DNA from: an uncultured archaeon
Lineage (GTDB): Archaea > Aenigmatarchaeota > Aenigmatarchaeia > QMZP01 > QMZT01
Direction of reading: 5' to 3'
DNA length: 40,062 nucleotides
Assembly: GCA_964346665.1 (NCBI GenBank)
Contig: CAYFVC010000035.1
Coordinates: 1 to 40,062, forward strand
Shown here: positions 6,001 through 33,421 of the stretch, one piece after another
How the letters are laid out: every line of letters begins with the position of its first letter
Numbering within the stretch: the stretch's first letter is position 1
Position numbers and translations under genes: made by a program
The notes under the pieces: model-generated
What the model saw: the letters and a program-made list of their open reading frames with translations, nothing else
What the model was told of the DNA's origin: nothing
Databases searched by the model: none

Positions 6001-9000
6001 TGGAACCCGGTCGATACGATAACACCTAACTATTACACCATCTACATAAACGCAACAAAACCTGGAACCAATGAGAATTCAACAACCAACACCACCACCA
6101 TCGATGTGATGGGGGTATATATAGCGAACATAACTTCTCCTGCCAATGGATCACAGTATGGTAGGGGGGATCTCATCTCCTTCAACGCCAGCATAAGGGA
6201 TGAGAACTGGAACTGGTTCATTGGAGGAACCAATTGGGTGTACTGGTACAACGATACTGGGGACCATATAGAAACGACGGTTTCAGGAGAGCAAAGCTCG
6301 TTTGATTCGAGCACGCAAGCTCCAGGTTTCAGAAACTTCACCGCAAGGTCCGAACCTGGCTTGCCTCACTATTATGCTGAAAATGATACCGTTACGGTTC
6401 ATATAACTGGATGGGCTGATGTTGTGTGGGTGTATCCACCACATCTTTCGAGCGTAACGTATCCTTACACGTTCCAGAGGATTTGCAGGGTTGTTGACTA
6501 CGTTACTAGTGTAGGAATCGAAAACTATCCGATCAATTTCTCCTACTTAAACGAGACTTTGGGAGAATGGGTTTACAATGGAACGTATCTAACTAATTCG
6601 ACCGGTTATGCAAACGCCAGCTGGACACCTTGGGATAAAGGGAATGTAACGTTTAATTGTACGATCTGGGACAATTCCTCGCTTGAATACACAACAAATA
6701 TAGCGAGTGTAAGCGCAACAATATGGGTTAAGGATAATGTCCCGCCAACCATAGAGAATGTTTCAATCATTCCTAACCAGAGCATGGAGGCGTGGATGAA
6801 CACCACAAACATATCTGCGGACGTAACGGATGATTACGCGGTCGATAGTGGTGGTGTATGGGCTTACATAGGGCTTCCGAACGGAAGTTACGAGAACAAG
6901 ACAATGTCATTCGTTGAGAATAATACCTATCGCTACGAATATCTTCCGAAACTTAACGGAACCTACAATGTTACTGTATACGCAAAGGACGAAGGGCCCG
7001 AAAACAACGTTAACCATTCGGATGTTTACTACTTCGAGGTTTGGGGTAAAGCAACGGGGAAGGTGGATCAAATAGGATACGTGTACGCAGGGGGGATCAC
7101 GCAAACCAGTGATTTCAAATTCAACCTGACCATAAACTTCACCAATCTCGGGCCTCCAAATGCTTACTACGTAAACCTCACAATCTACGATGATTCCCCA
7201 GGTTACGTGAGCTACAACGAAACCTCATATTACTGCGGGAACATGACGAACGGCTCGTTCTGCAGTTGGACTCTTGAGGTCACTATATTGCCTGCTACAC
7301 CTCCAACAGGAATATACATTTACGGTAATGCTAGCTGGATGGATCCTGACAAAACAGATGCTTCTGTGATTAACTCAACATACGTGGTAGTTGCTTCCAA
7401 CCCCATTATTGAGATAATAGAGACTGGAATAAACAAGACTGTTATGCATGACAAGACAACTTACATTGATAACATCACCGTTTACTCGAGCGGAAATGAC
7501 AGGGTCAACGAAATATCGCTTTCGAACTTGGGAGGAAACTTTGATTATGATTGTTATGATTGTGGATTAATGATGGTTCCTGACTCCCAAGATGATCTAG
7601 CAGCAGGCTATAATTTCACCTCCCACATCTGGGTTACCATACCAAAGGGTAAATCACCCGGAATCTACTGGACCTACATAGTTGTTAATTCAAGTAACGG
7701 TGGATCGGATGAATACCTTCTGAACCTCACGGTTGAACCCAACGCCTCTTGGACCAGAACGCCGGATTCGTTCCCGACTGTAATAGCACAACCGAATACG
7801 AACGGTCTGGTAGGGAGGGTGAACGTCACGAACCACGGGAATGTGAAGATATACTTCGAGACATCAAGAAGGGAGGCAGCAGCATCTCTGCTCATAGTCA
7901 CACCGGAAGGTTTCGCCTCCGAAAAGTTATCGAAGAGGGTCATAAACATTTCGTATTCGGTCCCGCTGGCCTATCCGGAAGATATGTATTATGGAATTGT
8001 GGCTATAAGGAACGACACGCTACCTGCGGATCCTGTGGAAAGAACGGTTTCCTTCTGGCTAAACGTAACGGACCTCCCGCCCAACGTAACGGATTACAGC
8101 GTGATACCTACAGAGTTTGAAGTTGGTTACGAAACAGTGTATATCAACGCCACGATTGTGGATAATGTAGCGGTTGACAAGGGCTGGATAGATGTTGAGA
8201 GGCCTGGGGACATAAGTTATTCTTACGTTAGTAAACAGATTCACTCTTCGTCAGGGGATCCCGGATTCAACTACACTGAGGGTATAAATTACTCTGGAAT
8301 CATGCAGTACTTCAACATCACGATTTACAACCAGAACGAATCTTTCGTTTATGTGAACATAACGGTTAACGGTTTGCTCATCGCCTCCAACCAGTCCATC
8401 GAGAATTCAACGAACTTCACGATAGATGCCGTCCAGGAAAGCGTGAGTTTCGCTTTGCCAGGAAATCAAACCATAAACATCACTGTACAGAACTCTAGCG
8501 GAGACCTCATCAATTCAGCGTATACATCTTGGCTTAGCTACAGTTTAAGAATAGGGGAAACGTACAAAAAAATCATGGACAGGAATGCAAGCGAATTCAA
8601 CACAACCTATTGGACCAACATAAGCGGAATTCATGATTTGAGAATATGCGCGAATGACACGTCATCGAAAATCGGTTGCACATCAATCATATATCTCACA
8701 GCGGCAGGGAACACGAGTATAGCGATCTCGCCTAACGTTACAGTGATAAACGTAACGAACATGACGATCTATCAGGGAGAGGATATCCACATCGAATTCA
8801 ACATTTCGAATGTAGGTTACGCGAGGGCTTACAACATAACCATGAACATATCTTATCCAGAAAACTGGTCAGCTACTCCAGAGAATTTCTCATTCGGAAC
8901 ACTTTACAAAACTAACATATCTTCGAATTTCACCTTGATATCCGTTCCTCCGTTCACGCTGCCTGGAGAATATCTGGTAAACTTCACCGCCAACTGGATA

Positions 9001-12000
9001 AATCTTAATATATCCTATAACGGAACCAACACAACTTCCATACTAGTGAACGTGACAGCGAACCCTGTTCTGGATCTCCAAGACAGGATACCTGAAACAG
9101 GAGAAGTGGTTATAATGTCAGGGGGAACGAAGAATGAGACATTCAACGTGACTTCGATAGGTAATGTCAACGTAACCAACGTGAACTTCTCCTGCCAGTC
9201 AGGAGAGGTCTGCGAGAATTTCACGGACCCGTCCCCATTCTATCCATCAAACATATCCGTCCTTCTGGTGAATCAAACCGAATTCGTAAACATAAGCATT
9301 TCAATCCCCCCGGAATATCCAGCAGGATACTATAACGGAACAATTCTTGCGAATGGAACTTCCACCTGGGATTCCTCCTACATATACGTGAACATCCCAG
9401 AGAACATATCTTGGACTCAAGATCCTAACAACATAACCAAGGAGGTAATACAGGGAACGCAGGGAAACTTCGGGACCATAACAGTTAGAAATAACGGAAA
9501 TGTTTTCGTAAGGTTGGCGGTAGTACAATATAACTGGGGTTTAGGGACTTACGTGACGTTTTATCCAAACCAGCTTGAACTGGATATCGGGGAAACGAAA
9601 TACATATACCTTAACTACAACGCACCAGTTGTTTATTCCCTCACAAGTTACACTGGCACATTGTGGACGTACAACGAAACTGCGGACCCGAGTTACCACG
9701 ACACTCTGCTAAATTTGACCATACACCCGTACTTCGTGGATATCATTTCCCCAACAGAGGCCAATCCGAAATTAAATGTTTCCCCGAGCGATGAGATAGA
9801 GGCGAGAATCAACATAACTTACGGAAATTCAAGCGTAAACGAAAGCATGACTTTCAATCTCTCGCTATCCAACAGCACCACGCTCGTTTACGTGGACATG
9901 ACAAATGTGAGCTACAATTCATCCGAAGGTTTGTGGTACGTGAATTTCACCGCCCCAAATTTTGCGCTTCAGAAGGGTTATGATTTGAATGTGACAGCGA
10001 TTTATTCGAAAACCCCTGTTTCAAACGTAACTTATTACGACTTCGAAGCAAAAGCCGTTATATACAGGGATGATATCCAACCAACCATTTTGATATCAGT
10101 TCCGCCTAGGGTACCCGCAAACACAACAGCCGTTATATACGCGAACGTGACCGACCCAGGAGGGGTTGAAAACGCGAGCATCGTTGTTTACGACCCGGAC
10201 AGCATAGCAGAGTACGGAGACATGACTTTCCTTTACAGGTATGTGGACACGTATGTTTACAAATATGATTACACGAACACGAGCAAGGTGGGAGTATATA
10301 ATGTAAACGTTACGGGTTGTGATAAATCCGGGAACTGTAATTCAACGAACAGGACTTTCGAAATTTACGTAGGGGCGTGGTTCTCTGGTTACGCGAAAGA
10401 TATAGTTAGAACAGGCAACCCTGTCATAAACCAGAGTTTCTGGTTCTATGATGATATACAATACGGAAATCTCCTTATAAACTTCTCAAGCGATCCGGAT
10501 ACAGGATATTACAACGAGAGTATAGACGCGAGGATGTATGATTTGAAAGTGGACTTCTGGAATGACAGCGTTTCGCTTTTGAACATTCCGTTACTTCAAG
10601 ATGTCCACAACCCGATACAATTCGGTAGTGTTACAAACCTTAACCGTATATCAGCAGGTGGAGCAGGGGTGTACAGGAGTGTGGTCGTTAACAATTCACT
10701 TAATTACTCCACAGGAAGCATCACTTTGAACTATTCAAGTTTTGAGAATGTTGCAATACTCGGTAACCTAACCATTTATCACTGTCCTTCGTTCGGTGTC
10801 AACGTCGTACAAATTTGCACTTCGAGCTGGACTAGGATGAGCTCGTCACTTAACATCACAACCACCTCGCTCACGGCGAACACCACAAACCTTCAAGGAG
10901 TGTTCGCAATTGCGAACTTCATATGCGGGGATGGGGAATGTGATGAGGACTACGGAGAATCAATTGCCAACTGCCCACAGGATTGTGAAATACCCATACC
11001 TCCACCACCGGTTACTCCAGGCGTTGGGGGGAGAGGTGCGAGGGTTGAAGTACCACCTAGTGTTCCACAAGTCCCTGTCGAAATAAAGTCAACCCTTATA
11101 TTCGTTACCCTTCGTCCGGGTGAGCATGAAATACACTCGATAGACGTGACGAATAATCTAGGAACGGGAATCGTTGTGGAGACAAGCGTGACGGGGAACG
11201 CCTGGGAGCTCGTTCAGATAGAAAAACCTGTCATGAACGTTTCCGCGAGGTCAACAGGAGTTTTGAAAGTCAAACTCTACGCCTTGCCAACGACGCAGGC
11301 AGGGATATACACTGGTGATATCATATCGAAGGTGAGATATCGCAACATCACGCATATAACGCCCGTAACCATAAAGGTAGAGATCCCGCCAGAACCACTA
11401 CTCGACGTGAAGGTCAAGGCATTGACAAAAACAGTAGAGCCGGGTGGCAATCTCAAATTCGAGGTAACTCTTATGAACATGGGACCAACCGCCACCATCG
11501 ATGACATAGTGGTCATTTACGAAATAAAGGGTTTGGAAACCGAAAGAGTGATAACGAAGAGCAGCGAAACGCTAGCAGTGGAGAATGTGAAAAGTTTCAC
11601 CAAAACCATCCCCATCCCTTGGGATACGCCACAAGACAGGTATATGGTTGAGGTCAACGTTACGTATTGGTACGGGAAGAAGTCGGCGTTTTCTGTGGAT
11701 TCGTTTGATGTTTTCGTTCTGCCCGCGCCTCTAGCCCTGTTACGAGCGGTGTTCATGCACTGGCTGACGTATGTGGTAGTATTCATGTTAATCCCAGGAT
11801 TCTACTTCGGAAGAAGACTTTACATGATTTGGATGGAGAAGAAAAGGAGAAGAAGGAGGTACATATTCCCAATAGACTTCAAGAAGCTTCCGAAGACTGG
11901 GCCTGATTCGATCCTCGTTGGTAAAATAGCAGAAACGGATGTGAAGGCATACGTGGATACCAAAGCCCTCATGATGCATTCGCTTTCGGCAGGGGCGACC

Positions 12001-12927
12001 GGAGCCGGCAAAACAGTTTCAGCGATGATAGTGGCGGAAGAACTTTTGAAGAGAGGTGTCCCTATCATCGTTTTCGACCCGACCGCCCAGTGGACAGGGT
12101 TCATGAAAGCATGCAGGGATAAGAGGATGTTTGATATCTACCCGAATTTCGGCCTTAAACCAGAGGACGCGAAGGCGTTCAAGACCAACATCGTTCTGGT
12201 GACAGACCCCGAAATGGAGGTGGACGTACAGAAGTACAGAAAACCTGGGGAAATAACGGTATTCGTTATGAACAGACTTGAACCCGGACAGATAGATAAA
12301 TTTGTTAGGAAAACAGTTTCTTCTGTGTTCCGCGCCGCACTTCCGGAGGAGAGGGAGATAAAGTTACTTCTGGTTTACGATGAGGTCCACAGGCTGCTTC
12401 CGAAGTACGGAGGTAAGGGAGGTTACATCGCGCTGGAAAGGGCTTGCCGAGAGTTCAGGAAGTGGGGAATCGGTGTGTTCATGATCTCCCAAGTCCTCAT
12501 GGATTTCCGAGGGGCGATACGTGCTAACATCGCCACGGAAATACAATTGAGGACGAAGTACGAAGGTGACATAGGAAGGGTGAAGACAAAATACGGAACG
12601 GATTACGCATCCAAGGTCGTGAAACTCACGACAGGAACAGCGTTAGTACAGAACCCAGCCTTCAACGAGGGTAAACCGTATTTCATAAGTTTCCGTCCGC
12701 TTCTTCACAACACTGGAAGGTTAACGGATAAGGAGATAAACAAGTACGTGAAAATCCAGAAGGAAATAGAGAAAATAGAGAAAAGGGTCGAGGCGATGAA
12801 AGCGAGAAAGGTCGACACAACAGACATAGAGATTGAACTCAACCTCGCGAAGGACAAGATGAAGGCAGGGCAGTTCACAATGGCCGAAAGCTACATAGGA
12901 TCATTGAAAGCCAGGCTAAAAGTGTAA
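1..12927 (+). CDS. Giant single-pass surface glycoprotein (>4,306 aa, probably truncated at the window start) with a C-terminal cytoplasmic HerA/FtsK-superfamily (DUF87-like) P-loop ATPase domain
   Basis: Uninterrupted 12.9-kb frame that is open to position 1 (GTT ATA ATG...). There is no signal peptide after the first Met, and a super-repeat unit begins at the window edge, so the real start is probably upstream. The extracellular part is made of Ig-like/CARDB-like repeats with about one N-X-S/T sequon per 10 aa. One TM helix and a polybasic stretch follow, then Walker A/B motifs and a terminal coiled coil. Confidence 0.85.
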   Translation, partial: VIMNSTLINTLIIPQGKEVLRGSNLTIQVRVNDSCDNNITDANLTIRMVSNKTSETFNCSDITHVGNGYYNCTFNTSANPGVMPAKGYEIIINSSKESYMSDTISVNYSSSSSFFIETKPVIENNSWNLTPSDDWGWGETYTFTVNVSDEDDDNMTVEIWVNVSGGWNNIYTNSTVNGVNKTVTYIYDAFDNDDIGNRQYVINVTDDGDHPRTGGISYNDSTPIENFTIYKDDISFEILLGDGDIVQRITGSFTFRVRGWDIDKDPNETISDVRGRFWYTKDGVTWSVSTERFTDTDDNLTFESSEISFDCSFLVGPQKWKAEMYDNTYYKDTNSTNISWTIFTTPLNATMWLSSDHYLRGVDNVTMTANVTETDGCGQVSGATVFFNVTDDNQQQVHTCTGQEISSGIYECNITPSTHAGWSSGFYNVTANITKTYYNGTSLDGDETETFFLATSPYFQSLQAIRSGGSGSTGGWGETWEFQANLLDPDSNYNNVSLYANLTGGWEKINETYTTPKLVRFRGHQFNCSVLQGQSTSQKQFNFTSIDVWNYMSSSVANFTLEKDDTSATASSPYGVTINRDFDDNETLEIYIRDTDNGSSIVGSGVEGAFWTMTNESDPPSQDGSYILAKINYTDSSGYLRYTFNPNCSYGVGDLYWRAGTYYNDTCYKGASSAISGYNTGARLMIIKGQLKTNLTDPNATEASNILVGDNVTFRFGVPTDCSGIGINESYQTGLSLVLLELQNPESGWENCTQGGGINDEGNGWYNCTWETKGHKGGNYTVRITVKSSLDYNDNITILTNYTYLNNTPPDYGNFSVSPSEDGWGAVYNYSVDIWDAQEDNVTCKLFVKTNNYGGQWILKNSTIVYGGRSKCSFLVSDFDCQDIGDDSVNAYMFEFDDETTIFNTTNQSGPNITIDSVEISYYYGNLSEINRSDDEPNSTALLMVFVNDTDKDQPADANVTFWVTIDSSDPNSWDSGNVTITNSSGIANVSFNPECTPQYTVGNHSWKAGVTDGCYAEVNITEDLNLTIYGTLKTTIKTTELPTGTEVLRGDNITEQIYVSSDCFTDVDDANTTIELIHEDSITVYNCTPMYSISSGEYECIWNTTGMKAKWYDTRANSFRDLYNMNTTTLENHFFIKTKPVLSNETADKDPAGWGENRSFSVTVNDDDLDNVTVELYIKCLETVGGSCPGIYSDNDWHWENDVTLESPVNETTQLSVSDNFYGIGCPTTGNWSYRFNATDIPHDYEDSTTPHNFTVEKNDVIYEPISGYDNETVWRNGSDSIVLKVRVYDNDSKSYAGSANATVWVTKNASDPDSWDIGKHIDVDGSGYINYSFFDDGEMPMHECNYTVGFHNWTAGIGGINEDTCYKTSNSSIYNLSVWSDLRPIIVKPLATEGFLQGDLINISGYVEDDCSWRMPYGVEGVTIDPSSGTQRFILKAYVPFDLYRYCSTNWQEGEGYYNCTWDSATQQRVLWNITMSIDKDYYAPNSTTEIEAFHLGNNPYLTTPAGVSPTVEGWGYNFTLYVRFGDADQNPNNISLWKSFDNQTWEHVSTKTDVVSSGKNLNFREKFTCADSLPTPGRINYYKFNVTDPYGYTDEIYPGTFNLTEDSVTLFINYSESSDNIRRLGNDQALLKFRIRDDDYSYLNPNGSHYPTGADGLVWVTSNGTNYTNVLNCTSNDGHCEVDYDPNCSTSEVGIQYWKGGTNDTCYEYENSTNETLEVVGQLNISIVNPTENVILNRNTTAVFNATVYDDCDLSINDSTVIWYNESWYNLTSGYNTTWFVPYNYPLGPDVIRANTSRTYYDGNTNSTSVYIYGWAELDSMYPPNGTVDLAGDVKTIKCHLRDANTLKNITNYTVAFYVNEEYQESKNTSNQSGEEGNASFLFSTNRPGGWYNLTCAINSSSYWYYNVSTPNITKEVRISRPLIIDQIVRDPSDGKIYRNDSSGYSPNQVNITVHLKDADLPGEGADNATVWFYNHSQAYIGNCTTNASGWCNESVSWNPVDTITPNYYTIYINATKPGTNENSTTNTTTIDVMGVYIANITSPANGSQYGRGDLISFNASIRDENWNWFIGGTNWVYWYNDTGDHIETTVSGEQSSFDSSTQAPGFRNFTARSEPGLPHYYAENDTVTVHITGWADVVWVYPPHLSSVTYPYTFQRICRVVDYVTSVGIENYPINFSYLNETLGEWVYNGTYLTNSTGYANASWTPWDKGNVTFNCTIWDNSSLEYTTNIASVSATIWVKDNVPPTIENVSIIPNQSMEAWMNTTNISADVTDDYAVDSGGVWAYIGLPNGSYENKTMSFVENNTYRYEYLPKLNGTYNVTVYAKDEGPENNVNHSDVYYFEVWGKATGKVDQIGYVYAGGITQTSDFKFNLTINFTNLGPPNAYYVNLTIYDDSPGYVSYNETSYYCGNMTNGSFCSWTLEVTILPATPPTGIYIYGNASWMDPDKTDASVINSTYVVVASNPIIEIIETGINKTVMHDKTTYIDNITVYSSGNDRVNEISLSNLGGNFDYDCYDCGLMMVPDSQDDLAAGYNFTSHIWVTIPKGKSPGIYWTYIVVNSSNGGSDEYLLNLTVEPNASWTRTPDSFPTVIAQPNTNGLVGRVNVTNHGNVKIYFETSRREAAASLLIVTPEGFASEKLSKRVINISYSVPLAYPEDMYYGIVAIRNDTLPADPVERTVSFWLNVTDLPPNVTDYSVIPTEFEVGYETVYINATIVDNVAVDKGWIDVERPGDISYSYVSKQIHSSSGDPGFNYTEGINYSGIMQYFNITIYNQNESFVYVNITVNGLLIASNQSIENSTNFTIDAVQESVSFALPGNQTINITVQNSSGDLINSAYTSWLSYSLRIGETYKKIMDRNASEFNTTYWTNISGIHDLRICANDTSSKIGCTSIIYLTAAGNTSIAISPNVTVINVTNMTIYQGEDIHIEFNISNVGYARAYNITMNISYPENWSATPENFSFGTLYKTNISSNFTLISVPPFTLPGEYLVNFTANWINLNISYNGTNTTSILVNVTANPVLDLQDRIPETGEVVIMSGGTKNETFNVTSIGNVNVTNVNFSCQSGEVCENFTDPSPFYPSNISVLLVNQTEFVNISISIPPEYPAGYYNGTILANGTSTWDSSYIYVNIPENISWTQDPNNITKEVIQGTQGNFGTITVRNNGNVFVRLAVVQYNWGLGTYVTFYPNQLELDIGETKYIYLNYNAPVVYSLTSYTGTLWTYNETADPSYHDTLLNLTIHPYFVDIISPTEANPKLNVSPSDEIEARINITYGNSSVNESMTFNLSLSNSTTLVYVDMTNVSYNSSEGLWYVNFTAPNFALQKGYDLNVTAIYSKTPVSNVTYYDFEAKAVIYRDDIQPTILISVPPRVPANTTAVIYANVTDPGGVENASIVVYDPDSIAEYGDMTFLYRYVDTYVYKYDYTNTSKVGVYNVNVTGCDKSGNCNSTNRTFEIYVGAWFSGYAKDIVRTGNPVINQSFWFYDDIQYGNLLINFSSDPDTGYYNESIDARMYDLKVDFWNDSVSLLNIPLLQDVHNPIQFGSVTNLNRISAGGAGVYRSVVVNNSLNYSTGSITLNYSSFENVAILGNLTIYHCPSFGVNVVQICTSSWTRMSSSLNITTTSLTANTTNLQGVFAIANFICGDGECDEDYGESIANCPQDCEIPIPPPPVTPGVGGRGARVEVPPSVPQVPVEIKSTLIFVTLRPGEHEIHSIDVTNNLGTGIVVETSVTGNAWELVQIEKPVMNVSARSTGVLKVKLYALPTTQAGIYTGDIISKVRYRNITHITPVTIKVEIPPEPLLDVKVKALTKTVEPGGNLKFEVTLMNMGPTATIDDIVVIYEIKGLETERVITKSSETLAVENVKSFTKTIPIPWDTPQDRYMVEVNVTYWYGKKSAFSVDSFDVFVLPAPLALLRAVFMHWLTYVVVFMLIPGFYFGRRLYMIWMEKKRRRRRYIFPIDFKKLPKTGPDSILVGKIAETDVKAYVDTKALMMHSLSAGATGAGKTVSAMIVAEELLKRGVPIIVFDPTAQWTGFMKACRDKRMFDIYPNFGLKPEDAKAFKTNIVLVTDPEMEVDVQKYRKPGEITVFVMNRLEPGQIDKFVRKTVSSVFRAALPEEREIKLLLVYDEVHRLLPKYGGKGGYIALERACREFRKWGIGVFMISQVLMDFRGAIRANIATEIQLRTKYEGDIGRVKTKYGTDYASKVVKLTTGTALVQNPAFNEGKPYFISFRPLLHNTGRLTDKEINKYVKIQKEIEKIEKRVEAMKARKVDTTDIEIELNLAKDKMKAGQFTMAESYIGSLKARLKV
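7..5175 (+). repeat. Five tandem protein-level super-repeats (342-351 aa, about 1.03 kb each) inside the giant ORF
   Basis: Units start at nt ~19, 1039, 2071, 3097 and 4150; a different module starts at 5176. Each unit keeps the same motif order. First comes a Cys-containing domain (D.C ... Y.C ... G.Y.C.W[NDE][TS]). Second comes FF[IL].T.P ... GWG[E] ... DN.T[VC][EK]. Third comes F[TN]..KDD ... [VF]W[VY]T..SDP.SWD ... W[KRT][AG]G ...[DN][TG]CY. The units are divergent at the DNA level. Confidence 0.8.
11746..11811 (+). other. Single transmembrane helix of giant protein 1, followed by a polybasic stop-transfer stretch
   Basis: AVFMHWLTYVVVFMLIPGFYFG is followed by RRLYMIWMEKKRRRRRY (to nt 11862). 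By the positive-inside rule the downstream part is cytoplasmic. N-X-S/T sequons stop completely after this point. Confidence 0.75.
11860..12720 (+). other. HerA/FtsK-superfamily (DUF87/VirB4/CedB-like) ATPase domain
   Basis: Walker A AGATGAGKT (11989-12015) sits in the context LMMHSLSAGATGAGKTV...GVPIIVFDPTAQW. Walker B is LLLVYDE-VHRLLP (12364-12384). GIGVFMISQVLMDF...ANIATEIQLRT matches the HerA-type xxSQrP...T.i.lr pattern as I remember it. A coiled coil follows at 12720-12924. Confidence 0.7.
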
Positions 12928-12978: not shown

Positions 12979-14523
12979 ATGAGGAGAAGGGTGAAAAAAG
13001 GTAGGGTAAAGAGGAAACCGAGAAGAAAAATTTCTGCAAAAAAAGCGGAAGAAATTCCTAAATTAACGGAAAGCCTTGAACATTTAATGCACCAGAAAGA
13101 GGAGATACGTGCTTTGCTTTCTTCGCTGGAGGATGCGTACAGCGAGGCTACTATTATGGAGGAGGACTACAGAGAAATCAAATCCAAGAATCTTACGAGA
13201 CTTGAGGAGATAAACAAGAAGATAGAGACTTTGAAAAGGGAGGGGGTGAAACCTAAACCCCCGCCAAGACCAGAAATCCCGGTGGTCGAACCTCCGACTG
13301 CAGTCCCTGTTGAGGCACCTCCGATTCCTGCTGCTCCCCCTGTTGTTGTTGAGGAGAAGGTTGAGAGAAAACCAAAGAAAAAGAAGGGATTAGTGAGCCC
13401 AGAGGATCTGAAAAAGCTAGAAGTGGACCTCGCAGAAAGAGTAAAGGAAATGGTGGAGGACATAGGGGCAAAGGTATCCGAAAAGGATGTTCTTGAGATA
13501 AAGAACAAATTCACCAGATTCGATACGGAAATAGAGAAGATGAAAGCGTTGATCGAAACCGTAAGGGAAGGTAAAAAGGTTTCTGATGAAAAGATCCAGA
13601 GGGTTGTGGAAGGCCTCGCTGAGATCCGAACCATGGTCTACGGAAGGGAGGCTTCCATGAAGGAGTGGGAGGTCAAACTGGAAAAGGTTATGGATATCAT
13701 GAACAGGGTCGAACCGGAAAAGATAATGATGGAGATGGGAAGAAGGGACAAGGAAGTGGAAAATCAGAATTTGAGGATAAACAAGCTTGAGGAAATGACA
13801 AAGGAGTTTGGGGAAATGGTTAAAAATATAGAAAAGGTTTTGCGCGACATAGGGAGTCTGGAAAATGTTGTTAAGGTAAGTAGCGATGCTTCTGAAAAAT
13901 TGATGAACATGCAGAATATCGAAAGGAATAACCAGAAGATGTTAGATAAAATTCAGGGTCTTTATGCTGAACTCAGCAAACGAATGGAGGAATTCATGCT
14001 TTATCGAGCTAAGCAAGATCGGATGGAGGATTTGATTAATGAGATGCTGAAAAACCTTGACGACATCAACACTAAGGCCGCGTACTTCGTAACGAGGGAT
14101 GATTTAGAGTCGTTCAGGGCGAGCATGCAGGCTGCCGCTCCCTCCGCACCTTCACCAAAAGATGAACTAAGTGATTTAAAATCAGAGAAGGAAGAAATAG
14201 AAATGCTCATGAAATCGTTAGAGGAGGAGTTCAAGGGCGTTGCGATTTCGAAGGAAGAGTACGAAAAAATGAAGAATGCGAATTTAGCAAAACTTAAGGA
14301 GATAGAGGGGAAAATAAAGGAAGCTGAAAAGGGGAAGGTTTTGGGAGCGATCAAAGAGGGGAAACCAGAGGGAAAGCCAAAGAAAATCGAAAGGGGAATA
14401 CCCCCAGAAGAAAAGGGGAAGGAAGAAATGCTTTTGAAGGATCTGGAAGAGACCTTCAAAAAGGGGTTCATAAGCAAGGAAGCGTATGAGAAAACCAAGA
14501 AGATGATTTTGAGAAAAGGGTGA
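12979..14523 (+). CDS. Cytoplasmic coiled-coil protein with a polybasic N-terminus, a Pro-rich linker and three SHOCT-like motifs
   Basis: ATG start and no TM segment. N-terminus is MRRRVKKGRVKRKPRRK; linker is KPKPPPRPEIPVVEPPTAVPVEAPPIPAAPP. The central part is E/K-rich with heptad character. SHOCT-like L..LE..[YF]k.g.IS.E.Y...K motifs lie at 13114-13203, 14206-14295 and 14431-14520. The TGA stop overlaps the GTG start of the next gene. Confidence 0.8.
   Translation: MRRRVKKGRVKRKPRRKISAKKAEEIPKLTESLEHLMHQKEEIRALLSSLEDAYSEATIMEEDYREIKSKNLTRLEEINKKIETLKREGVKPKPPPRPEIPVVEPPTAVPVEAPPIPAAPPVVVEEKVERKPKKKKGLVSPEDLKKLEVDLAERVKEMVEDIGAKVSEKDVLEIKNKFTRFDTEIEKMKALIETVREGKKVSDEKIQRVVEGLAEIRTMVYGREASMKEWEVKLEKVMDIMNRVEPEKIMMEMGRRDKEVENQNLRINKLEEMTKEFGEMVKNIEKVLRDIGSLENVVKVSSDASEKLMNMQNIERNNQKMLDKIQGLYAELSKRMEEFMLYRAKQDRMEDLINEMLKNLDDINTKAAYFVTRDDLESFRASMQAAAPSAPSPKDELSDLKSEKEEIEMLMKSLEEEFKGVAISKEEYEKMKNANLAKLKEIEGKIKEAEKGKVLGAIKEGKPEGKPKKIERGIPPEEKGKEEMLLKDLEETFKKGFISKEAYEKTKKMILRKG
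13114..13203 (+). other. SHOCT-like motif copy 1 (LLSSLEDAYSEATIMEEDYREIKSKNLTRL)
   Basis: Read from the translation. Resembles the SHOCT pattern (L..L..L...G.It.eEye..K..LL) recalled from memory. Confidence 0.45.
14206..14295 (+). other. SHOCT-like motif copy 2 (LMKSLEEEFKGVAISKEEYEKMKNANLAKL)
   Basis: Read from the translation. This is the closest match to the SHOCT pattern. Confidence 0.5.
14431..14520 (+). other. SHOCT-like motif copy 3 (LLKDLEETFKKGFISKEAYEKTKKMILRKG) at the extreme C-terminus
   Basis: Read from the translation. A C-terminal position is typical for SHOCT. Confidence 0.5.
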
Positions 14524-17500
14524 GTGAAATCCGCCACGGCAAATTGATTTTGGCGTTTGTGATCTTAGGAGTTTTCATGGTTTTGAATTTGGTTAGCACG
14601 TACTCTCAATCTTACGATTATGAATGGTGGGACGTTCGCTGGCGTTACAGAATCGGTTTGGAAATAAACAACACCGGTTACGAAAGAACGGACTGGCCCA
14701 TAGAATACGAAATGAACTTCACAAATATTCTGGAGGGTATGAACGTAACCGGGACGTTCGATGAGAATTCCACCCGCGTGATAGAATACAACTCAACAGG
14801 TTCTATTCTTCATGAGCTCCCCTCCCAATTCGATAAAGGTGAAGGTTATGATCCAGCCACGAATGCTTTCGGAACGATAGTTTTTGAAATGAACGGGACC
14901 ACGCCTGCGGATGAAAAACGTTATTTCTACATTTATTTCGATATAACGGAAAATGATGACAAAGACCAGCCGAGCTATTCAACTGACCTTGTTTACAATT
15001 ACACTGGAAGCGTCTCGGAATTCAATGTGAACAACTCGCTTTTCCAATGGTGGATTGACACAGAAAGAGGGGAGAACACATCAGGTATTTACCATGTTAA
15101 GGATATTTATGCAGGAGAAAATGAAGTATTGCTGACCGATCCCTCAGACAACAGGACAGCCGAGTACTCCGAATTCTCGAATGCGAGCGATACATTCGGG
15201 TTCGACTTCAGGAACAACGCAACCTTCAAATATGTGGGACCTGTTAGAATTGTTGTTGAGCAGAAGGGTTACGAAATCTTCTGGAACCAACCAGATAACA
15301 AAACTAATGAAGGGTATATGATAAAAAGATACACGTTCTACCGGGAAATCGACTGGATTAAGATTGAACAGATATTTGTTAACAACGCCAGTTATAACAT
15401 AACGAGAAATTCAACCGTTGCCGGTGCCTTTGCTGTTTACGTTAACTATACATTCAACTACGGGTCAGGTTATTCTACCATGTCGGACACGAACGATCCA
15501 GGATCTTACGGATGGGCGGTGCAGGACGGGGGACAGGTGTGGATAGGGATTGTGAATAAATACGAAAACGGAACAAATAACTTCTTCGGCCTTGAGGACA
15601 CCGTAACCGGAAGGATCGGGATACAACTAAACGAAACGAACATGACACTGGGCAGTTCCATAAAACACATCGCCCACCTTCAGTTCAATGCAAGCGGTGA
15701 GGCAGGACAAGAAGATTATTTCAAAAATTTCGTGAACCAGAGCATCACACCTCTCAACATAACTGAACTCACCCCAGAATTTTGGAGTGTTGTGGTTGAG
15801 GGGAAGTTCTACATGAACGGAACGGACGAGGCGAACGTTTTCAACAGGAACGAGAGCGTTATACTATTGGCGAACGTAACCGATCTTTACAACATCTCCA
15901 AAAAAGTGAACGCGAGCTTGGATTTTGGAGTCGGCGAAGTGAACGTAACGCTATACGATGACGGAAACCACAGCGACGGACAGGCGAATGACAAGGTTTA
16001 TGCTAACACGTATAACATAACAGACTCGGATACCTTGGGTTTGTGGAACGTAACGTTTAGGGTATACAACGAAACATGGTATTTGGTTAACATAAGCTGG
16101 TCAACCTTCAACGTAACGGATGTGTATAACGTAACGGTTAACATAACGAATCCCACGGGCTTCACGGACAGGGTAGTGAACACAACTGTTTACGTGAGGA
16201 ATTACAGGAAGGATATTTGGATTGTTAACGCGACTCTGAACTGTTCGTTTGATTCCACAGAAATCCCTCAGGATAACATAACGGACAACGGGAATGGAAC
16301 TTATGATGTAAAGTTCAATGCCCCTGCATACGCAGGCTTGTTCACCCTTAACTGCAGCGCAACTAGAAATAATAACACAGGATGGGGAACGGACGAGTTC
16401 ACTTCAGAGACCTATACTACAAACGTCAGCATATTGAAGATTCCAGAAAACCTAACAGCGGATAACGTCACATCTTATTCGAATCAAACATTCAACATAA
16501 CCATCATCGCCGAGAACATAGCGAACGGGAGTGCGTATAATTCTAACATCACGCTTAATTTCTCAACCCCAAACATAACTGCGAACTTAACTTTTGTATC
16601 ATGCGGAAACATCCTGATAACGAAAAACTGTACGAAAACTTTCCAGATAATAGTTTTCAATGCGACACCTGCAGGAAACTATTCCCTGAACATAAGCGTT
16701 AGGTGGAGGAATTCAAATGGGTCTGTCCCCGGATATAACGAAAGCGTTATGAATATAACTGTCCTTGAAAATCCTATCCTTGACCTTTCGAAAAATTATG
16801 TATTCGGGATGATAGCCATAGGGATGGCGTTGAAAAACATAGATAACTTCACTGTGTATTCGCTGGGTAACGAGCCTCTGCAAAACGTAACGTTCGATGT
16901 TCTAGGTTTCAGTGGTAACTTCACCTTTGAGTTCATCCCCGAAAACTTTTCCTCAATTGGTGTTGGTATTTCGGAAAATGTGGAGATTTGGATTAACTCC
17001 ACAAATGATACTCTACCTGGGGAGTACAACGGAACGATAAACGTAACCAGCGATAACAACGGGTTCGAGATCATAAACGTTACCATCGCTGTTTCAGAAA
17101 CTAACATGACTATCGAAACGGACGTCGATAATTATACCGCTGAAAACGTTACGTGGTATAAAAACGAGACTTTCCCTATTTTCGTCAACACAACAAATAT
17201 AGGGAATGCAACCGCTTATAACGTGAGTCTGATTCTGAATTTCTCAAGTGATAATATAACCGCAAACGTAACCTCCCAAAACTGCGGAAATATCCCGAAG
17301 TCCGGGGTATGCAACTCCTCATTCCTCGTGATAATAAAAAGCGGAACACCTTCCGGGAACTACACCGTAAATGTGAGCGTGGAATGGGAGGATGAAAAAG
17401 GGATAAACACAAACGTAACGACTGTCAACATAACCGTACTTTCGAATATCTTGCTAATTGTACAACCGGATGAATTGTCGGATAATGTTACGCACGGGAC

Positions 17501-20459
17501 TGAAAAACAGATAGGTGTTCTTGTCTTGAATTCCACGGGAAATGACCCTGCTGAGAACATAACATTCGATATCTACAACTTTTCGAATGATTTCACTTTC
17601 GAATTCGTTCCGCCGAACATTTCTAGTCTGAATGGAGAATATCCGCAGGGTGTTAAGGTCAACGTCAGCGTTAAGTTCGGGAGAAATCCAGGGGTTTACA
17701 AGGGGATTTTGAACGTGACAACGGGGAATGATGGATACAAGGAGATTAACCTGACTATAGAAGTTCCAATATCAAGAACATGGTATCTGAACACAACATA
17801 TTGCGTAAAGGTTGAATACCCAGAGGAGGGAAAGGTGTGCGATGTTTTGGTTAACAACACTGGAAACGTTGTGATAAACTACACAATATCCCCTGTCACC
17901 AATTCAACTAGTATGTACAACTACACTTGGATCAATGAAACGAATTTCATAGTGGTGAATGGGACAACGCATGTTTTCTCTGTTTTCTACAACATAACAG
18001 GTCAGAGCATACAGTTTTACTACGCGAATTACACCATCGATGCTGTTCAGACAGGTTCGGACCCGGATAGCGAAATACTTCAGATAGTTCTCAGCCCTTT
18101 CGTAAAGCCTTTGGTTTCGGTGGGTTTCGCTCCCAACCAAACCGAACAAACTAAAAGCGTTTGGGTATACGCGAATGTTACAGATCAATCCGGGGCGGGG
18201 ATAGATGACGGGAACGTGACTGCGAATGTGACTAGACCTGATGGGACAAGCACGGTTGTAATCATGACCTTTTACGGTGGTGTAAAAACAGGAGGAACTT
18301 CAATATGGCGAGCGCAATATCCGGATGACCCGAATGAGGGGAACTGGGGAAATTCAACGTTAAAGGGTTATTACAATGTGAGTGTTTTCGCGATAGATAA
18401 TCAGGGAAAGAATGACACGGGAATCTCGCAATTCTACATTTACTCGAAACTTTCTCCGTTCTTTATGACAACTATGCCCTACTATTACCAAAAGGTTGGG
18501 CCCGGCACACCCATCATATTTTACAAATCTTTGGACTTCACAGAGGATACCCTGCCGGGAACGAACGTGACTTTCGTAATCAACAATTCAAACGGAACCG
18601 TCTACAACAGCTCCTCTAAATATGGTATACTGACGACCCATGATGATGGTTACATAAGAGATGAGTATGGGGGGATATATCTTGAAACAAGGTCTCTTAA
18701 AAGCTTTCCGACAGGAAACTACACCGCCACCGCCTATTCCACCTTCTTTGAACAAACGGCGTCCGCAATTATAAACGATACTTCAACGTATAATTTCGAA
18801 TTGCTGGAAAGCGCGGGAACACTTGCGAACATCTTTGTCTATCCTGTTTGGTATCCAGCCGAAGGTATAGTGAAATTCAAGATGTGGGTAACCGATAGCA
18901 TAGGGAATTTGCAGGAGCCCGTTTCAATGAACCTTAGCGTGTTTTACCCCATAACCGGCAATCCGTACTTCAACCGAACGATGAGCCAGATGACGAAGAT
19001 TTCGGAAGGCGTGTACATGTACACACATAACCTCCCAGCTAGTCCAACACCCGGGGTTTATGACGTTACTCTCGAAGTCCTAGGTAGGGATGGTACGAGA
19101 ACTTATGCTTTTTCCGGTTTCAGGATTGGTATAGGAGGGCCTTACGATGTTAGAATAACCGAAATCGAAAGTTCCGTTTACCAAAATGATTACCTTGACT
19201 TCACGCTGTTGATCAAAAACATGGGGGATGCCCCAACAGAAAACCTCGTTGAATACTGGGTGACAGGCCCGGATAACAGCACATGGGAGTACGGAAGCTA
19301 CTCCGAGGAGGTTGGAGCGGGTGTTGAAAAAACCGATTTAGTTAGTTTACTAATTTGGAGTTATCATCCTCCGGGAGATTACACTTTGAATGTCAAGCTT
19401 ACATACGACCAGGTCAACAACCTTTACGCTTCTGCAGCCGCTCCCTTCTCCGTACTTACAGGTGCGCCACCGGAAGAGCCAGGACCTGGTGTTGGCCCGG
19501 CAGAGATTCCTGCTATGCCTGTAGCCCCTAAAATAGAGATTATGAAATATCCTACGGAGTTTGGAATGGAAACAGATTCTGTTAAGTACCCGACGGTGGA
19601 GGTCAAAAATACAGGGGGGGTTACGTTGTATAACGTGACCCTTAGGGTAACGGGTATTCCATCCCCATGGATCCAAGAGGTAACGCCTGGGAAAATAGAT
19701 AGGTTGGACAGGGGTCGTAACGCCACATTCACCGTAACGTTGAGAATCCCGCTTGTTGCAGAAGCGAAAGAATATGCAGGTAAATTTGTAGCGGATGCTA
19801 ACGTGACGAGAGATGAGAAAACGTTCGTTTTGACCCTTTTCGCTTCACGTGCGGACCTGATAAGATGGGAGATCGACAGGTTGAAGGAAGCGTTACAAGA
19901 ATTAGAGGTGGACGTTGAGAACGCGAAAAAGGTGGGAAAAGACGTAAGTGAGGTTGAGCCGTACATAGACCGAATAAAGGAACAGATAAGGCTCGCTGAA
20001 GACTACCTCACGAAAAAGATGTACGATGAATCGTTGAGCGCGATACATACTGGGTGGAGTTTTCTCGAAAATGCAAGGTATTATTTGTCGATAGCGCCAT
20101 TTGTTGAAACCCTGATAGAGACCATATTCCCTCCATGGCTGATAGCATTGCTAATCGTCTTGGCTACTGTCATAATTATACTCCTGTTCTTTGTGAAAAG
20201 GATGAAAGGGGTTTTCGACAGGATATTCAGAATACAGGTTCCTGGCGCACCAGCCGCTGTCAAGCCATCCGTGATCATGGAGAAGATGAAGGAGAAGGAA
20301 ACCATGGAAAAGGAAAGGATGAATATAAGAAGGGTTCTCAGTCTTCTGGAAAGGGAATACAAGGAAGGATTGATATCAGAGAAGGCTTACAGCGATCTCA
20401 AGAAGAGGAACGAGGAAAAGCTTTCGAAAATCGAGAAGAGGATATCTGCGATGAAATAA
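14520..20459 (+). CDS. Giant single-pass surface glycoprotein 2 (1,979 aa) with an N-terminal signal/anchor, a C-terminal TM helix and a SHOCT-like cytoplasmic tail
   Basis: GTG start in a GTGA overlap with the upstream stop. N-terminal hydrophobic segment is KLILAFVILGVFMVLNLVSTYSQ. It is followed by YEWWDVRWRYRIGLEINN, which resembles the start of DUF2341-type beta-sandwich domains (from memory; needs an HMM check). Sequon density is extreme, with 17 N-X-S/T in one ~115-aa stretch. A Pro-rich stalk (APPEEPGPGVGPAEIPAMPVAP), a CARDB-like domain and a helical segment precede the TM helix at 20136-20195 (WLIALLIVLATVIIILLFFV-KRMK). The cytoplasmic tail is 87 aa. Confidence 0.85.
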   Translation: MSEIRHGKLILAFVILGVFMVLNLVSTYSQSYDYEWWDVRWRYRIGLEINNTGYERTDWPIEYEMNFTNILEGMNVTGTFDENSTRVIEYNSTGSILHELPSQFDKGEGYDPATNAFGTIVFEMNGTTPADEKRYFYIYFDITENDDKDQPSYSTDLVYNYTGSVSEFNVNNSLFQWWIDTERGENTSGIYHVKDIYAGENEVLLTDPSDNRTAEYSEFSNASDTFGFDFRNNATFKYVGPVRIVVEQKGYEIFWNQPDNKTNEGYMIKRYTFYREIDWIKIEQIFVNNASYNITRNSTVAGAFAVYVNYTFNYGSGYSTMSDTNDPGSYGWAVQDGGQVWIGIVNKYENGTNNFFGLEDTVTGRIGIQLNETNMTLGSSIKHIAHLQFNASGEAGQEDYFKNFVNQSITPLNITELTPEFWSVVVEGKFYMNGTDEANVFNRNESVILLANVTDLYNISKKVNASLDFGVGEVNVTLYDDGNHSDGQANDKVYANTYNITDSDTLGLWNVTFRVYNETWYLVNISWSTFNVTDVYNVTVNITNPTGFTDRVVNTTVYVRNYRKDIWIVNATLNCSFDSTEIPQDNITDNGNGTYDVKFNAPAYAGLFTLNCSATRNNNTGWGTDEFTSETYTTNVSILKIPENLTADNVTSYSNQTFNITIIAENIANGSAYNSNITLNFSTPNITANLTFVSCGNILITKNCTKTFQIIVFNATPAGNYSLNISVRWRNSNGSVPGYNESVMNITVLENPILDLSKNYVFGMIAIGMALKNIDNFTVYSLGNEPLQNVTFDVLGFSGNFTFEFIPENFSSIGVGISENVEIWINSTNDTLPGEYNGTINVTSDNNGFEIINVTIAVSETNMTIETDVDNYTAENVTWYKNETFPIFVNTTNIGNATAYNVSLILNFSSDNITANVTSQNCGNIPKSGVCNSSFLVIIKSGTPSGNYTVNVSVEWEDEKGINTNVTTVNITVLSNILLIVQPDELSDNVTHGTEKQIGVLVLNSTGNDPAENITFDIYNFSNDFTFEFVPPNISSLNGEYPQGVKVNVSVKFGRNPGVYKGILNVTTGNDGYKEINLTIEVPISRTWYLNTTYCVKVEYPEEGKVCDVLVNNTGNVVINYTISPVTNSTSMYNYTWINETNFIVVNGTTHVFSVFYNITGQSIQFYYANYTIDAVQTGSDPDSEILQIVLSPFVKPLVSVGFAPNQTEQTKSVWVYANVTDQSGAGIDDGNVTANVTRPDGTSTVVIMTFYGGVKTGGTSIWRAQYPDDPNEGNWGNSTLKGYYNVSVFAIDNQGKNDTGISQFYIYSKLSPFFMTTMPYYYQKVGPGTPIIFYKSLDFTEDTLPGTNVTFVINNSNGTVYNSSSKYGILTTHDDGYIRDEYGGIYLETRSLKSFPTGNYTATAYSTFFEQTASAIINDTSTYNFELLESAGTLANIFVYPVWYPAEGIVKFKMWVTDSIGNLQEPVSMNLSVFYPITGNPYFNRTMSQMTKISEGVYMYTHNLPASPTPGVYDVTLEVLGRDGTRTYAFSGFRIGIGGPYDVRITEIESSVYQNDYLDFTLLIKNMGDAPTENLVEYWVTGPDNSTWEYGSYSEEVGAGVEKTDLVSLLIWSYHPPGDYTLNVKLTYDQVNNLYASAAAPFSVLTGAPPEEPGPGVGPAEIPAMPVAPKIEIMKYPTEFGMETDSVKYPTVEVKNTGGVTLYNVTLRVTGIPSPWIQEVTPGKIDRLDRGRNATFTVTLRIPLVAEAKEYAGKFVADANVTRDEKTFVLTLFASRADLIRWEIDRLKEALQELEVDVENAKKVGKDVSEVEPYIDRIKEQIRLAEDYLTKKMYDESLSAIHTGWSFLENARYYLSIAPFVETLIETIFPPWLIALLIVLATVIIILLFFVKRMKGVFDRIFRIQVPGAPAAVKPSVIMEKMKEKETMEKERMNIRRVLSLLEREYKEGLISEKAYSDLKKRNEEKLSKIEKRISAMK
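16419..17768 (+). repeat. Tandem duplication of a ~225-aa two-domain (CARDB-like) cassette in giant protein 2
   Basis: Unit 1 spans 16419-17099 and unit 2 spans 17100-17768. Aligned motifs: TN[VM][ST]I...DN.TAENVT...N.TF.I...N[IT].N[GA][ST]AYN...L NFS..NITAN[LV]T...CGNI...C...F..I[VI]...TP[AS]GNY[ST][LV]N[IV]SV.W...N[IV]TVL.N ... NDP/NEP..N[IV]TFD[VI]..FS..FTFEF[IV]P.N[FI]SS...PG[EV]Y.G.[IL]NVT..N.G...IN[VL]TI.V. Confidence 0.8.
20136..20195 (+). other. Transmembrane helix of giant protein 2
   Basis: WLIALLIVLATVIIILLFFV is followed by KRMKG. There are no sequons downstream of it. Confidence 0.75.
20337..20423 (+). other. SHOCT-like motif in the cytoplasmic tail of giant protein 2 (LSLLEREYKEGLISEKAYSDLKKRNEEKL)
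   Basis: Same L..LE..[YF]K.G.IS.E.Y...K pattern as the three copies in the 514-aa protein. Confidence 0.5.
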
Positions 20460-20574: not shown

Positions 20575-21234
20575 ATGCGGAAAAAATCGAAACTCACGGA
20601 TTACAAGAATTTCTGGCTCATATGGATAAACTGCGCTGGGGAAAAAGAAGGGGTCTCGTTGTTTAAGATTCAGACAGAGTGGGATGTGAAAACGAATTAC
20701 TTGTACCACAACGAAGTGGGTCTGGGGAGACCGTTGTTCAGGTCCATGGTAAGGGAGAATTACATAGCGAAAGAAGGTAAGCGCCTGAAAGCGAAATTTG
20801 AATGGATACCAAAATTCATAAGGGAAAAATACGAAGGGGAGAGGAAGGGTCTATGGTTTCCCGATTCTTTGCTCAGGATTAAATGGGGGGCTGTTCAGAA
20901 ATTCATCGAAAAATATCATCCCGTACTTTTCAGAATGAAAAACCTAAAACTTCTGTACAAGAATGATAAGGAATTAATAGGGAAATCCGGAACGCATGTA
21001 TTCACGGATGTTTTTCTTTACGTGTTGTTTTCTAATCTCAGAACATTCTGCAAGAAATACGAGGCTGATGTTGTTCTGAGAATAATATCCACCCTAATTT
21101 CACTTTCAACCGATAGGGATTTGCTGAATTACATACACAGGCTAGATTCAGAACTAGGGAAAGTTCCCGACTTCCCCGTATTGGTTAGGGACGAGAACGA
21201 ACTGTCGAAAATATTGTGTACGCTGAAATGGTAA
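20575..21234 (+). CDS. Hypothetical protein (219 aa), no family recognised
   Basis: ATG-initiated ORF with its own upstream A/T box and coding-like composition. There is no TM segment and no motif I can name. Confidence 0.6.
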   Translation: MRKKSKLTDYKNFWLIWINCAGEKEGVSLFKIQTEWDVKTNYLYHNEVGLGRPLFRSMVRENYIAKEGKRLKAKFEWIPKFIREKYEGERKGLWFPDSLLRIKWGAVQKFIEKYHPVLFRMKNLKLLYKNDKELIGKSGTHVFTDVFLYVLFSNLRTFCKKYEADVVLRIISTLISLSTDRDLLNYIHRLDSELGKVPDFPVLVRDENELSKILCTLKW

Positions 21235-21236
21235 AG

Positions 21237-21244
21237 ATATAAAA
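21237..21244 (+). promoter_or_regulatory. TATA-like box (ATATAAAA) 24-31 nt upstream of the ATG at 21268
   Basis: Part of GATATAAAATATAAAAAC in a 33-nt spacer. Confidence 0.3.
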
Positions 21245-21267
21245 TATAAAAACAAGATAATGGTAAG

Positions 21268-33420: not shown

Positions 33421-33421
33421 T

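Follow-up and report, generated by a model that had tools for sequence, protein, structure and literature searches.

The DNA analysed here (the window, 40,062 nucleotides of contig CAYFVC010000035.1) derives from a member of Candidatus Aenigmatarchaeota, a DPANN lineage, and carries an operon for which no description was found in the literature. At its centre lie two adjacent genes, one encoding p514, a predicted cytoplasmic scaffold protein of 514 amino acids (aa), and the other encoding giant protein 2 (giant 2), a predicted surface protein of 1979 aa. Four copies of a small helical module, which probably belongs to the SHOCT-like superfamily, are divided between the two products, with three copies in p514 and one at the end of the cytoplasmic tail of giant 2. 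The features of this gene pair, based on open reading frames (ORFs) and their translations, on composition and on AlphaFold2 (AF2) models with their predicted local distance difference test (pLDDT) scores, are as follows.

12979..14523, forward strand: p514 gene, predicted cytoplasmic scaffold protein of 514 aa (ORF and translation).
12982..13029, forward strand: polybasic N-terminus of p514, RRRVKKGRVKRKPRRK, aa 2-17 (seen in the sequence; inside the disordered aa 1-30, pLDDT <50).
13069..13239, forward strand: SHOCT-like hairpin 1, aa 31-87, long form, acidic (AF2 helices 33-55 and 61-87, pLDDT ~90).
13240..13398, forward strand: Pro-rich disordered linker, aa 88-140 (28% Pro; pLDDT <50).
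13399..14127, forward strand: central long coiled-coil core, aa 141-383 (AF2 helices 141-162, 168-243, 246-292, 294-370 and 373-383).
14158..14331, forward strand: SHOCT-like hairpin 2, aa 394-451, long form (AF2 helices 394-419 and 425-451).
14404..14520, forward strand: SHOCT-like hairpin 3, aa 476-514, short canonical form at the extreme C-terminus, basic (AF2 helices 476-494 and 500-510).
14520..14523, forward strand: GTGA overlap of the p514 stop and the giant-2 start (GTG at 14520, TGA at 14521-14523).
14520..20459, forward strand: giant 2 gene, 1979 aa (ORF and translation).
20139..20195, forward strand: C-terminal transmembrane (TM) helix of giant 2, aa 1874-1892 (hydropathy 3.49; AF2 helix 223-253 of the modelled segment).
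20265..20453, forward strand: SHOCT-like hairpin on the giant-2 tail, aa 1916-1978, long form, basic (AF2 helices 267-299 and 305-329 of the segment, pLDDT ~91).

A preliminary description of this locus, made from the letters alone, had reported three repeats of one sequence motif in p514 and a fourth on an 87-aa tail of giant 2, together with the GTGA overlap and the Pro-rich spacer (aa 88-140, 28% Pro), and all of these were recovered, the four motifs at the coordinates that it had given. The core pattern L...LE..[YF]....I[SM].[EK].Y...K occurs in p514 at 13114-13182, 14206-14274 and 14431-14499 (motifs 1, 2 and 3, one in each hairpin), and across all six frames of the window a relaxed form of it adds just one further site, in giant 2 at 20334-20402. 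The longer pattern proposed earlier is a consensus and not a literal string, as motif 1 has S, A and M in place of K, G and S and motif 3 is without the Asn.

Hidden Markov models (HMMs) of the three p514 motif classes, built from 30 family members with all giant-2 sequences excluded, were searched against 644 stop-to-stop six-frame fragments of the window. The giant-2 tail was matched by the motif-1 HMM at 33.2 bits (E 1.4e-9), by the motif-2 HMM at 19.5 bits, by the motif-3 HMM at 8.8 bits and by the combined HMM at 30.8 bits, and the next-best fragment of the window had an E-value of about 0.8 to 1. All motifs are rich in Glu and Lys and helical, and none reaches the Pfam SHOCT cut-off, from which it could be argued that their similarity is a by-product of generic E/K-rich coiled-coil composition without specific meaning. 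This explanation was refuted by two kinds of control, and its probability is considered practically negligible: among 5000 composition-preserving shuffles of the tail, the kind of control that the preliminary description had suggested, the maximum was 11.6 bits and the real score was never reached, and the E/K-rich coiled-coil proteins of the same operon (639, 1096 and 289 aa) gave 3.8 bits at most for their best stretch and negative scores as whole proteins. Position-specific invariant residues among homologues of 29-70% identity, as well as the same motif site in all 18 full-length giant-2 orthologues, also speak against it.

The family appears to be well represented within one archaeal lineage. 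There were 48 p514 homologues at E<=1e-3, the named ones being Candidatus Aenigmarchaeota, and a scan of GTDB species representatives yielded 26 loci, of which the taxon-titled ones were nearly all Aenigmatarchaeota metagenome-assembled genomes; many of the others bear the title 'uncultured archaeon' only. A search of 1.84 billion representative proteins with the motif profile returned 346 proteins at E<=1e-3, among which a length of 450-750 aa with three matched stretches was common; tblastn of the tail motif against plasmids gave no match. In an alignment of 30 p514 sequences the three motifs are the best-conserved parts of the protein, with invariant L47, S49, E51, Y54, A57, E61, Y64, N71 and L75 in hairpin 1, conserved K430 and N435 in hairpin 2, and invariant G496, I498 and S499 in hairpin 3. 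When the combined HMM was applied to 5580 six-frame fragments from 31 sequences (the window and loci L001-L030, some of which overlap), only p514 homologues and giant-2 C-termini scored; the p514 homologues had three matches each at equivalent positions, and every complete homologue keeps three motifs. The tail motif is present in 18 of 18 full-length giant-2 orthologues (15 at E<0.01 and three by visible motif), is kept down to 29-33% p514 identity, and ends 2-6 residues from the C-terminus across loci. Hairpin 3 likewise stops close to the C-terminus, at a distance of 0-4 residues in nearly all homologues and of 18 in L017. Judged by these sequence comparisons, the four motifs are homologous and represent one bihelical module of the helix-loop-helix type. 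The pattern of cross-matches, in which the motif-1 HMM matches hairpin 2 at 36.6 bits and hairpin 3 at 5.7 bits, further divides them into two subtypes, a long one (motifs 1 and 2 and the tail) and a short one of canonical length (motif 3).

Structural models agree with such a module. All four copies are modelled as helix-loop-helix hairpins with pLDDT ~90 in single-chain AF2 predictions. In the p514 model, which was computed from the 30-sequence alignment and has a mean pLDDT of 72.9, a disordered linker also separates hairpins 2 and 3. The Pro content of the linker at aa 88-140 varies between 11 and 28% across homologues. No relative of the coiled-coil core was found in PDB or Pfam, and a PDB profile search with the whole p514 alignment gave no match. 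For giant 2, a model of the last 330 residues (mean pLDDT 84.3) contains a beta-sandwich, a three-helix stalk, the TM helix, a disordered stretch and the hairpin, and a Foldseek search with this model returned Ig-like beta-sandwich matches only.

The two proteins can also be placed relative to the membrane. Giant 2 has an N-terminal signal or anchor, a heavily N-glycosylated ectodomain, which includes an NPCBM_assoc/NEW3 domain (aa 1692-1758), a C-terminal TM segment and a cytoplasmic tail; it has two TM segments, aa 4-22 and aa 1874-1892, of which the second is followed by a basic stretch. Its 121 N-glycosylation sequons all lie ahead of the C-terminal TM segment, with none after it, while p514 has no TM segment and a single sequon. 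Because of this distribution of sequons, p514 and the giant-2 tail are predicted to be cytoplasmic and the bulk of giant 2 extracellular.

Co-occurrence of the two genes across genomes, which the preliminary description had proposed as a check, was borne out: based on BLAST of the window proteins, the order of giant protein 1 (giant 1) with its HerA-like ATPase, p514 and giant 2 on one strand is kept in 24 of 26 informative contigs. The giant-1 ATPase adjoins p514 in 27 of 30 fetched loci, that is, wherever upstream sequence is present. The p514/giant-2 junctions (n=23) comprise eight NTGA overlaps, one overlap of 7 nt, ten gaps of 1-10 nt and four larger gaps. An exception to the synteny is found in L030 (7724-11719, labelled Micrarchaeota), in which a p514-like protein of 1331 aa has three motif matches and a giant-2-like gene lies 7 kb away. 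In the complete chromosome CP070801.1 (L024) giant 2 looks truncated, but this was traced to a masked run of N and is not biological.

As for family membership, the SHOCT likeness noted in the preliminary description was retained in pattern and placement, together with a probable homology at superfamily level, but membership in Pfam SHOCT (PF09851) was rejected, with scores below threshold throughout. Full-length p514 and giant 2 gave no SHOCT match at E<=1; in the same proteins SHOCT_2 was matched at E 0.021 and GvpG at E 0.0036. On isolated motif segments, SHOCT reached 12.6-20.6 bits (10 of 41 segments, best E 3.7e-4) against a cut-off of 27 bits in the Pfam copy used (24 bits in the 2013 paper), so that no motif attains it in the HMM check that had been proposed; SHOCT_2 (PF20612) reached 14-16 bits against 24, and the SHOCT-like family DUF1707 (PF08044) 14.7 bits at best against 27.6 (2 of 41 segments). 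These sub-threshold SHOCT matches are nevertheless recurrent and in register, covering profile positions 3-28.

The SHOCT domain was defined by a strongly conserved Gly and Glu, about five hydrophobic positions and the absence of insertions or deletions in the helices and loop (PMC3581485). In the present modules the core of all motif classes aligns without gaps. The loop Gly never varies in hairpin 3 (G496), and 17 of 18 tails have it too, the exception being L017 with Lys; in hairpin 2 the position is variable, and hairpin 1 does not have the Gly. The modules share with SHOCT and SHOCT_2 the two-helix form, the loop Gly with an aromatic residue seven positions further on, an I-[ST] pair, and the C-terminal placement of hairpin 3 and the tail, both of which lie within the ~50 aa from the C-terminus that are usual for SHOCT. 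A two-helix module with a short loop, as expected for the ~30-aa SHOCT domain, is seen in the AF2 models, hairpin 3 being ~35 aa long and the others ~55-60 aa. Hairpins 1 and 2 and the tail are thus about twice as long as SHOCT and have an extra conserved N..KL..IE.KI stretch; hairpin 1 is without the Gly, and hairpins 1 and 2 are internal rather than C-terminal. Three of the four copies are thus classed as an elongated variant, and none of the four belongs to PF09851 by that family's own threshold.

Relatives on the DUF1707 side were retrieved by the same search of the representative library (1.84e9 proteins), in which the motif profile also matched two otherwise unrelated proteins, P0168 and P0183, at E ~2e-9. 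Both score above threshold on DUF1707 (54.9 and 36 bits, respectively), and their repeats read [VL]..L..A[YF]..G[RK]I[ST]..aYe.N..kL, which matches the motif core including the Asn. An hhalign comparison of the window-family motif alignment with 16 P0168/P0183 repeats gave a probability of 93.3% (E 2.7e-7). The reverse comparison, by an HMM of these repeats, was weak: p514 was the top match in the window (E 0.0021), followed by giant 2 (E 0.92), and two p514 homologues were matched at 1.8e-6 and 9.7e-5. In P0183 (640 aa, metagenomic), Ig-like ectodomains are followed by a TM helix and then, in the cytoplasm, by five DUF1707 SHOCT-like repeats joined by Pro-rich linkers; P0168 (625 aa, metagenomic) combines a TM helix with a membrane-proximal array of eleven repeats. 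The likeness to the modules of the window thus extends from the core L..L..A[YF]..G.I[ST]...Y..N..KL with its conserved Asn to the presence of multiple copies and Pro-rich linkers, and in the case of P0183 to cytoplasmic repeats after a TM helix in a protein with an Ig-like ectodomain. In contrast to these DUF1707 proteins, the copies described here are split between a soluble scaffold and the tail of a membrane protein and are not arrayed on one chain. The recurrent in-register sub-threshold matches, the retrieval of DUF1707 proteins and the hhalign probability of 93% together suggest that the modules probably belong to the SHOCT-like superfamily. The gas-vesicle protein family GvpG (PF05120) was the most frequent sub-threshold Pfam match of the motif segments (28 of 41 segments, 12-18 bits against a cut-off of 30.6, best E 1.2e-3). 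The DUF1707 repeats of P0168, too, exceed the cut-off of the GvpG model, so that a related hairpin is probably part of GvpG as well. By their scores, p514 and giant 2 are not assigned to GvpG, and no gas-vesicle genes were detected among the scanned ORFs of the window.

A further property of the modules is their charge, which was compared over 17 species. Hairpin 1 has a mean core charge of -5.3 and is always acidic (-3 to -8 in 17 of 17 species), hairpin 2 has a mean of -1.1, hairpin 3 a mean of +2.5, and the giant-2 tail hairpin a mean of +2.8, the last being never acidic. This pattern fits heterotypic pairs in which hairpin 1 would bind either the tail or hairpin 3, as far as can be read from sequence. 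It also bears on a different explanation, according to which each module by itself attaches to the inner membrane leaflet or holds its host domain close to the membrane, so that p514 and the tail would share a localisation device and not bind each other. Such a role has been proposed from comparative genomics for SHOCT-like domains, which were suggested to anchor disparate domains to the inner membrane leaflet (PMC11237479), and it would agree with the basic character of hairpin 3, the tail hairpin and the p514 N-terminus and with the membrane-proximal repeat arrays of P0168 and P0183. However, an acidic hairpin 1 in 17 of 17 species and a roughly neutral hairpin 2 are unfavourable for contact with anionic archaeal lipids, the tail hairpin, which a TM helix in the same chain holds at the membrane anyway, would gain little from a second anchor, and the hydrophobic residues read in the sequence as a heptad-like core pattern and not as an amphipathic surface helix. 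Since the class-specific charges are conserved and hairpin 1 is always acidic, the modules are probably not all simple binders of anionic lipids, and membrane anchoring is regarded as an unlikely explanation.

Among solved structures, the best match of the motif profile was aa 90-112 of CdvA (PDB 9s9g; Pfam PF18822; E 4.9e-4), and a second CdvA segment, aa 144-170, also resembles the profile. According to the CdvA structure paper of 2026, residues A90, L94, I100, I149, M153 and I156 form longitudinal head-to-tail contacts, and their mutation abolishes filament formation (PMC12818579); the two matched segments contain all six of these hydrophobic contact residues. The analogy suggests CdvA as a precedent for hairpins of this kind mediating protein-protein contacts. 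p514 itself does not appear to be a CdvA, a protein with a PRC barrel, a three-helix coiled coil, an ESCRT-III peptide and cdvB/cdvC neighbours: it is without the PRC barrel and the ESCRT-III-binding peptide, no PRC or ESCRT matches were obtained, and no Cdv genes were seen in the window. As the matching segment of CdvA makes homotypic head-to-tail contacts, and as SHOCT commonly accompanies oligomeric proteins (PMC3581485), it could be that the modules serve homo-oligomerisation only, with giant-2 tails clustering together and p514 self-assembling into filaments or bundles in a CdvA-like manner and no direct contact between the two proteins; the p514 of L016, which keeps its three hairpins where no giant 2 is adjacent, would agree with this. 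On the other side, the tail resembles hairpin 1 (33 bits), with which it shares the long subtype, more closely than hairpin 3 does (5.7 bits), and the strict gene adjacency and coupling as well as the opposite conserved charges fit heterotypic pairing better. Purely homotypic assembly is consequently given a low probability.

The explanation that we favour is that p514 docks on the giant-2 tail through hairpin-hairpin contacts and thereby builds a sub-membrane scaffold. In this model, three module copies carried on flexible linkers around a rigid coiled-coil rod would make p514 the scaffold, and one copy terminates the short cytoplasmic tail of giant 2, a type-I giant N-glycosylated surface protein whose gene directly follows that of p514 and is in many cases coupled to it in translation. 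The hairpins would associate via their partly exposed hydrophobic faces as short helical bundles, by which p514 would dock beneath the membrane onto the tail, and the always-acidic hairpin 1 would be the best candidate partner of the basic tail hairpin. Being trivalent, p514 could bridge several tails, or further copies of itself, and so form a lattice beneath the membrane by which the giant surface proteins would be organised. Motif homology, conservation, synteny, the hairpin fold and membrane topology are the observations from which we infer the physical interaction between hairpins and its pairing specificity.

Several results weigh against this explanation. Over the 17 species, the charges of the p514 hairpins did not covary significantly with that of the tail (rho 0.39, -0.13 and -0.34). 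Oligomerisation by SHOCT was not supported by initial experiments in the only published test (PMC3581485). The similarity to CdvA is borderline and could reflect convergence of helical hairpins, and a Foldseek search of the p514 model against PDB returned nothing significant, the best hits being ESCRT-I headpiece hairpins (E 0.34) with CdvA at rank 6 (E=1.0); helical hairpins are poorly discriminating in such structure comparison. Finally, L016 (5930-8751) departs from the common gene order in that its p514 homologue with three hairpins is followed by Mnh-like membrane genes with no adjacent giant 2. With both sides taken together, docking of p514 on the giant-2 tail is put forward tentatively, at slightly less than an even chance.

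Other features of the window surround this gene pair on the same strand.

7..12927, forward strand: giant 1 ORF, 5'-truncated and running off the 5' edge of the window, at least 4306 aa.
11737..12924, forward strand: giant 1 C-terminal TM (aa 3911-3929), cytoplasmic HerA/FtsK-like P-loop ATPase and terminal helices (DUF87 and HerA_C matches).
20575..28417, forward strand: conserved downstream operon partners, namely a 219-aa protein, MinD, an 87-aa TM protein and three coiled-coil proteins (Pfam, NCBIfam and synteny in closer loci).
21268-22038, forward strand: archaeal MinD (minD_arch, 241.5 bits against a cut-off of 201.75, NCBIfam).

Giant 1 has 262 N-glycosylation sequons, and its ATPase (at about 11884-12726, Walker A GATGAGKT) matched HerA-like helicases in PDB and, below threshold, the NCBIfam models of CedD, TraD and HerA. 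The fusion of a surface giant to a translocase-type ATPase is unusual. The giant-1 orthologue called in locus L004 is 14,519 aa long. The C-terminus of giant 1 (12727-12924, forward strand) is a strongly conserved helical element with the rough consensus DTxD[IL]ExELxLA[KR]DK......F.MA..Y..S.K. It was rejected as a fifth SHOCT-like or an MIT-like module (family HMM -0.1 bits, no consistent Pfam match), and it could be another docking site. Homologues of the ATPase numbered 380 at E<=0.001, and the named ones span several DPANN lineages; DUF87/HerA-like homologues of 48-82% identity (P0195-P0314) are widespread in DPANN, among them Woese-, Pace- and Nanoarchaeota. In a woesearchaeotal locus (L031, 10125-15206) the ATPase is again fused, to a surface protein of 1693 aa, with no SHOCT-like partner nearby. 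No motif-bearing ORF was found beside the ATPase homologues in three contexts examined outside Aenigmatarchaeota, and within these contexts the SHOCT-like pairing appears to be particular to the Aenigmatarchaeota operon.

This neighbourhood also bears on the polybasic N-terminus of p514, in which the preliminary description had seen a possible membrane- or nucleic-acid-binding adaptor. The polybasic segment is indeed present at aa 2-17 but is clade-limited: across 30 p514 homologues the N-terminal net charge is +6 to +14 in 22, +4 in two and 0 to +2 in six distant ones. As it is absent from the distant clade, it is judged on this comparison not to be essential to the core function of the family. 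Binding of nucleic acid was among the original hypotheses for SHOCT (PMC3581485), and with a polybasic N-terminus in p514 and a CedD/TraD/HerA-like ATPase at the end of the upstream gene, it is conceivable that the modules and the N-terminus bind nucleic acid and link DNA to the neighbouring membrane HerA/FtsK-like translocase. The lack of the polybasic segment in the distant clade, the acidic or neutral character of hairpins 1 and 2, the finding of no nucleic-acid-binding domain match, and the ATPase homologues of other DPANN lineages, which were without a motif-bearing neighbour in the three contexts, make this improbable in our estimation.

Downstream of giant 2, the 219-aa protein had no family match, the 87-aa TM protein has a coiled coil, and the three long coiled-coil proteins (639, 1096 and 289 aa) have apolipoprotein-like repeats. 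Purine skew is very strong throughout 20575-28417, where the GC skew rises to as much as 0.44. Antisense to the 1096-aa repeat protein runs an ORF of 948 aa (24338-27184, reverse strand), which most likely is no gene and arises from the repetitive, purine-rich nature of the coding strand. Between giant 1 and p514 lies a very AT-rich gap of 51 nt (12928-12978; tatttatttgattgtatttaattaattatt), immediately followed by the p514 ATG; from its sequence, the gap may be an internal archaeal promoter that gives a leaderless or short-leader p514/giant-2 transcript. Elsewhere in the window, five successive ORFs on the reverse strand (32932-36087; 170, 159, 355, 171 and 204 aa) overlap at their ends and have no Pfam match; they are flanked by a MiaB-like radical-SAM gene (30688-31938), an ERCC4/XPF nuclease gene (36117-36821) and a DUF1846 gene (36824-38377).

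In a broader and more doubtful scenario, the operon may encode an envelope-spanning apparatus of a kind not described before, made up of giant 1 with its ATPase, p514, giant 2, MinD and the coiled-coil proteins, in which the hairpins would act as a heterotypic 'velcro' that joins giant adhesins to a sub-membrane cytoskeleton and a translocating ATPase, plausibly as an organelle for host attachment or uptake. If true, SHOCT-type modules would thereby obtain a defined molecular function for the first time.

Thousands of prokaryotic proteins contain SHOCT or SHOCT-like modules, for which, to our knowledge, no function has been demonstrated. What is new here is a variant of the SHOCT-like module in an uncharacterised, conserved DPANN operon. 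The locus offers a natural, conserved and genetically coupled pair, consisting of a soluble three-module protein with distinct conserved charges and a membrane-protein tail with one module, and four small peptides from it would be suited to deciding between the competing ideas of SHOCT function. Beyond this, the locus opens a first way into the question of how DPANN archaea might link their enormous surface glycoproteins to the cytoplasm, a link that bears on how these ultra-small archaea attach to and exploit their hosts.

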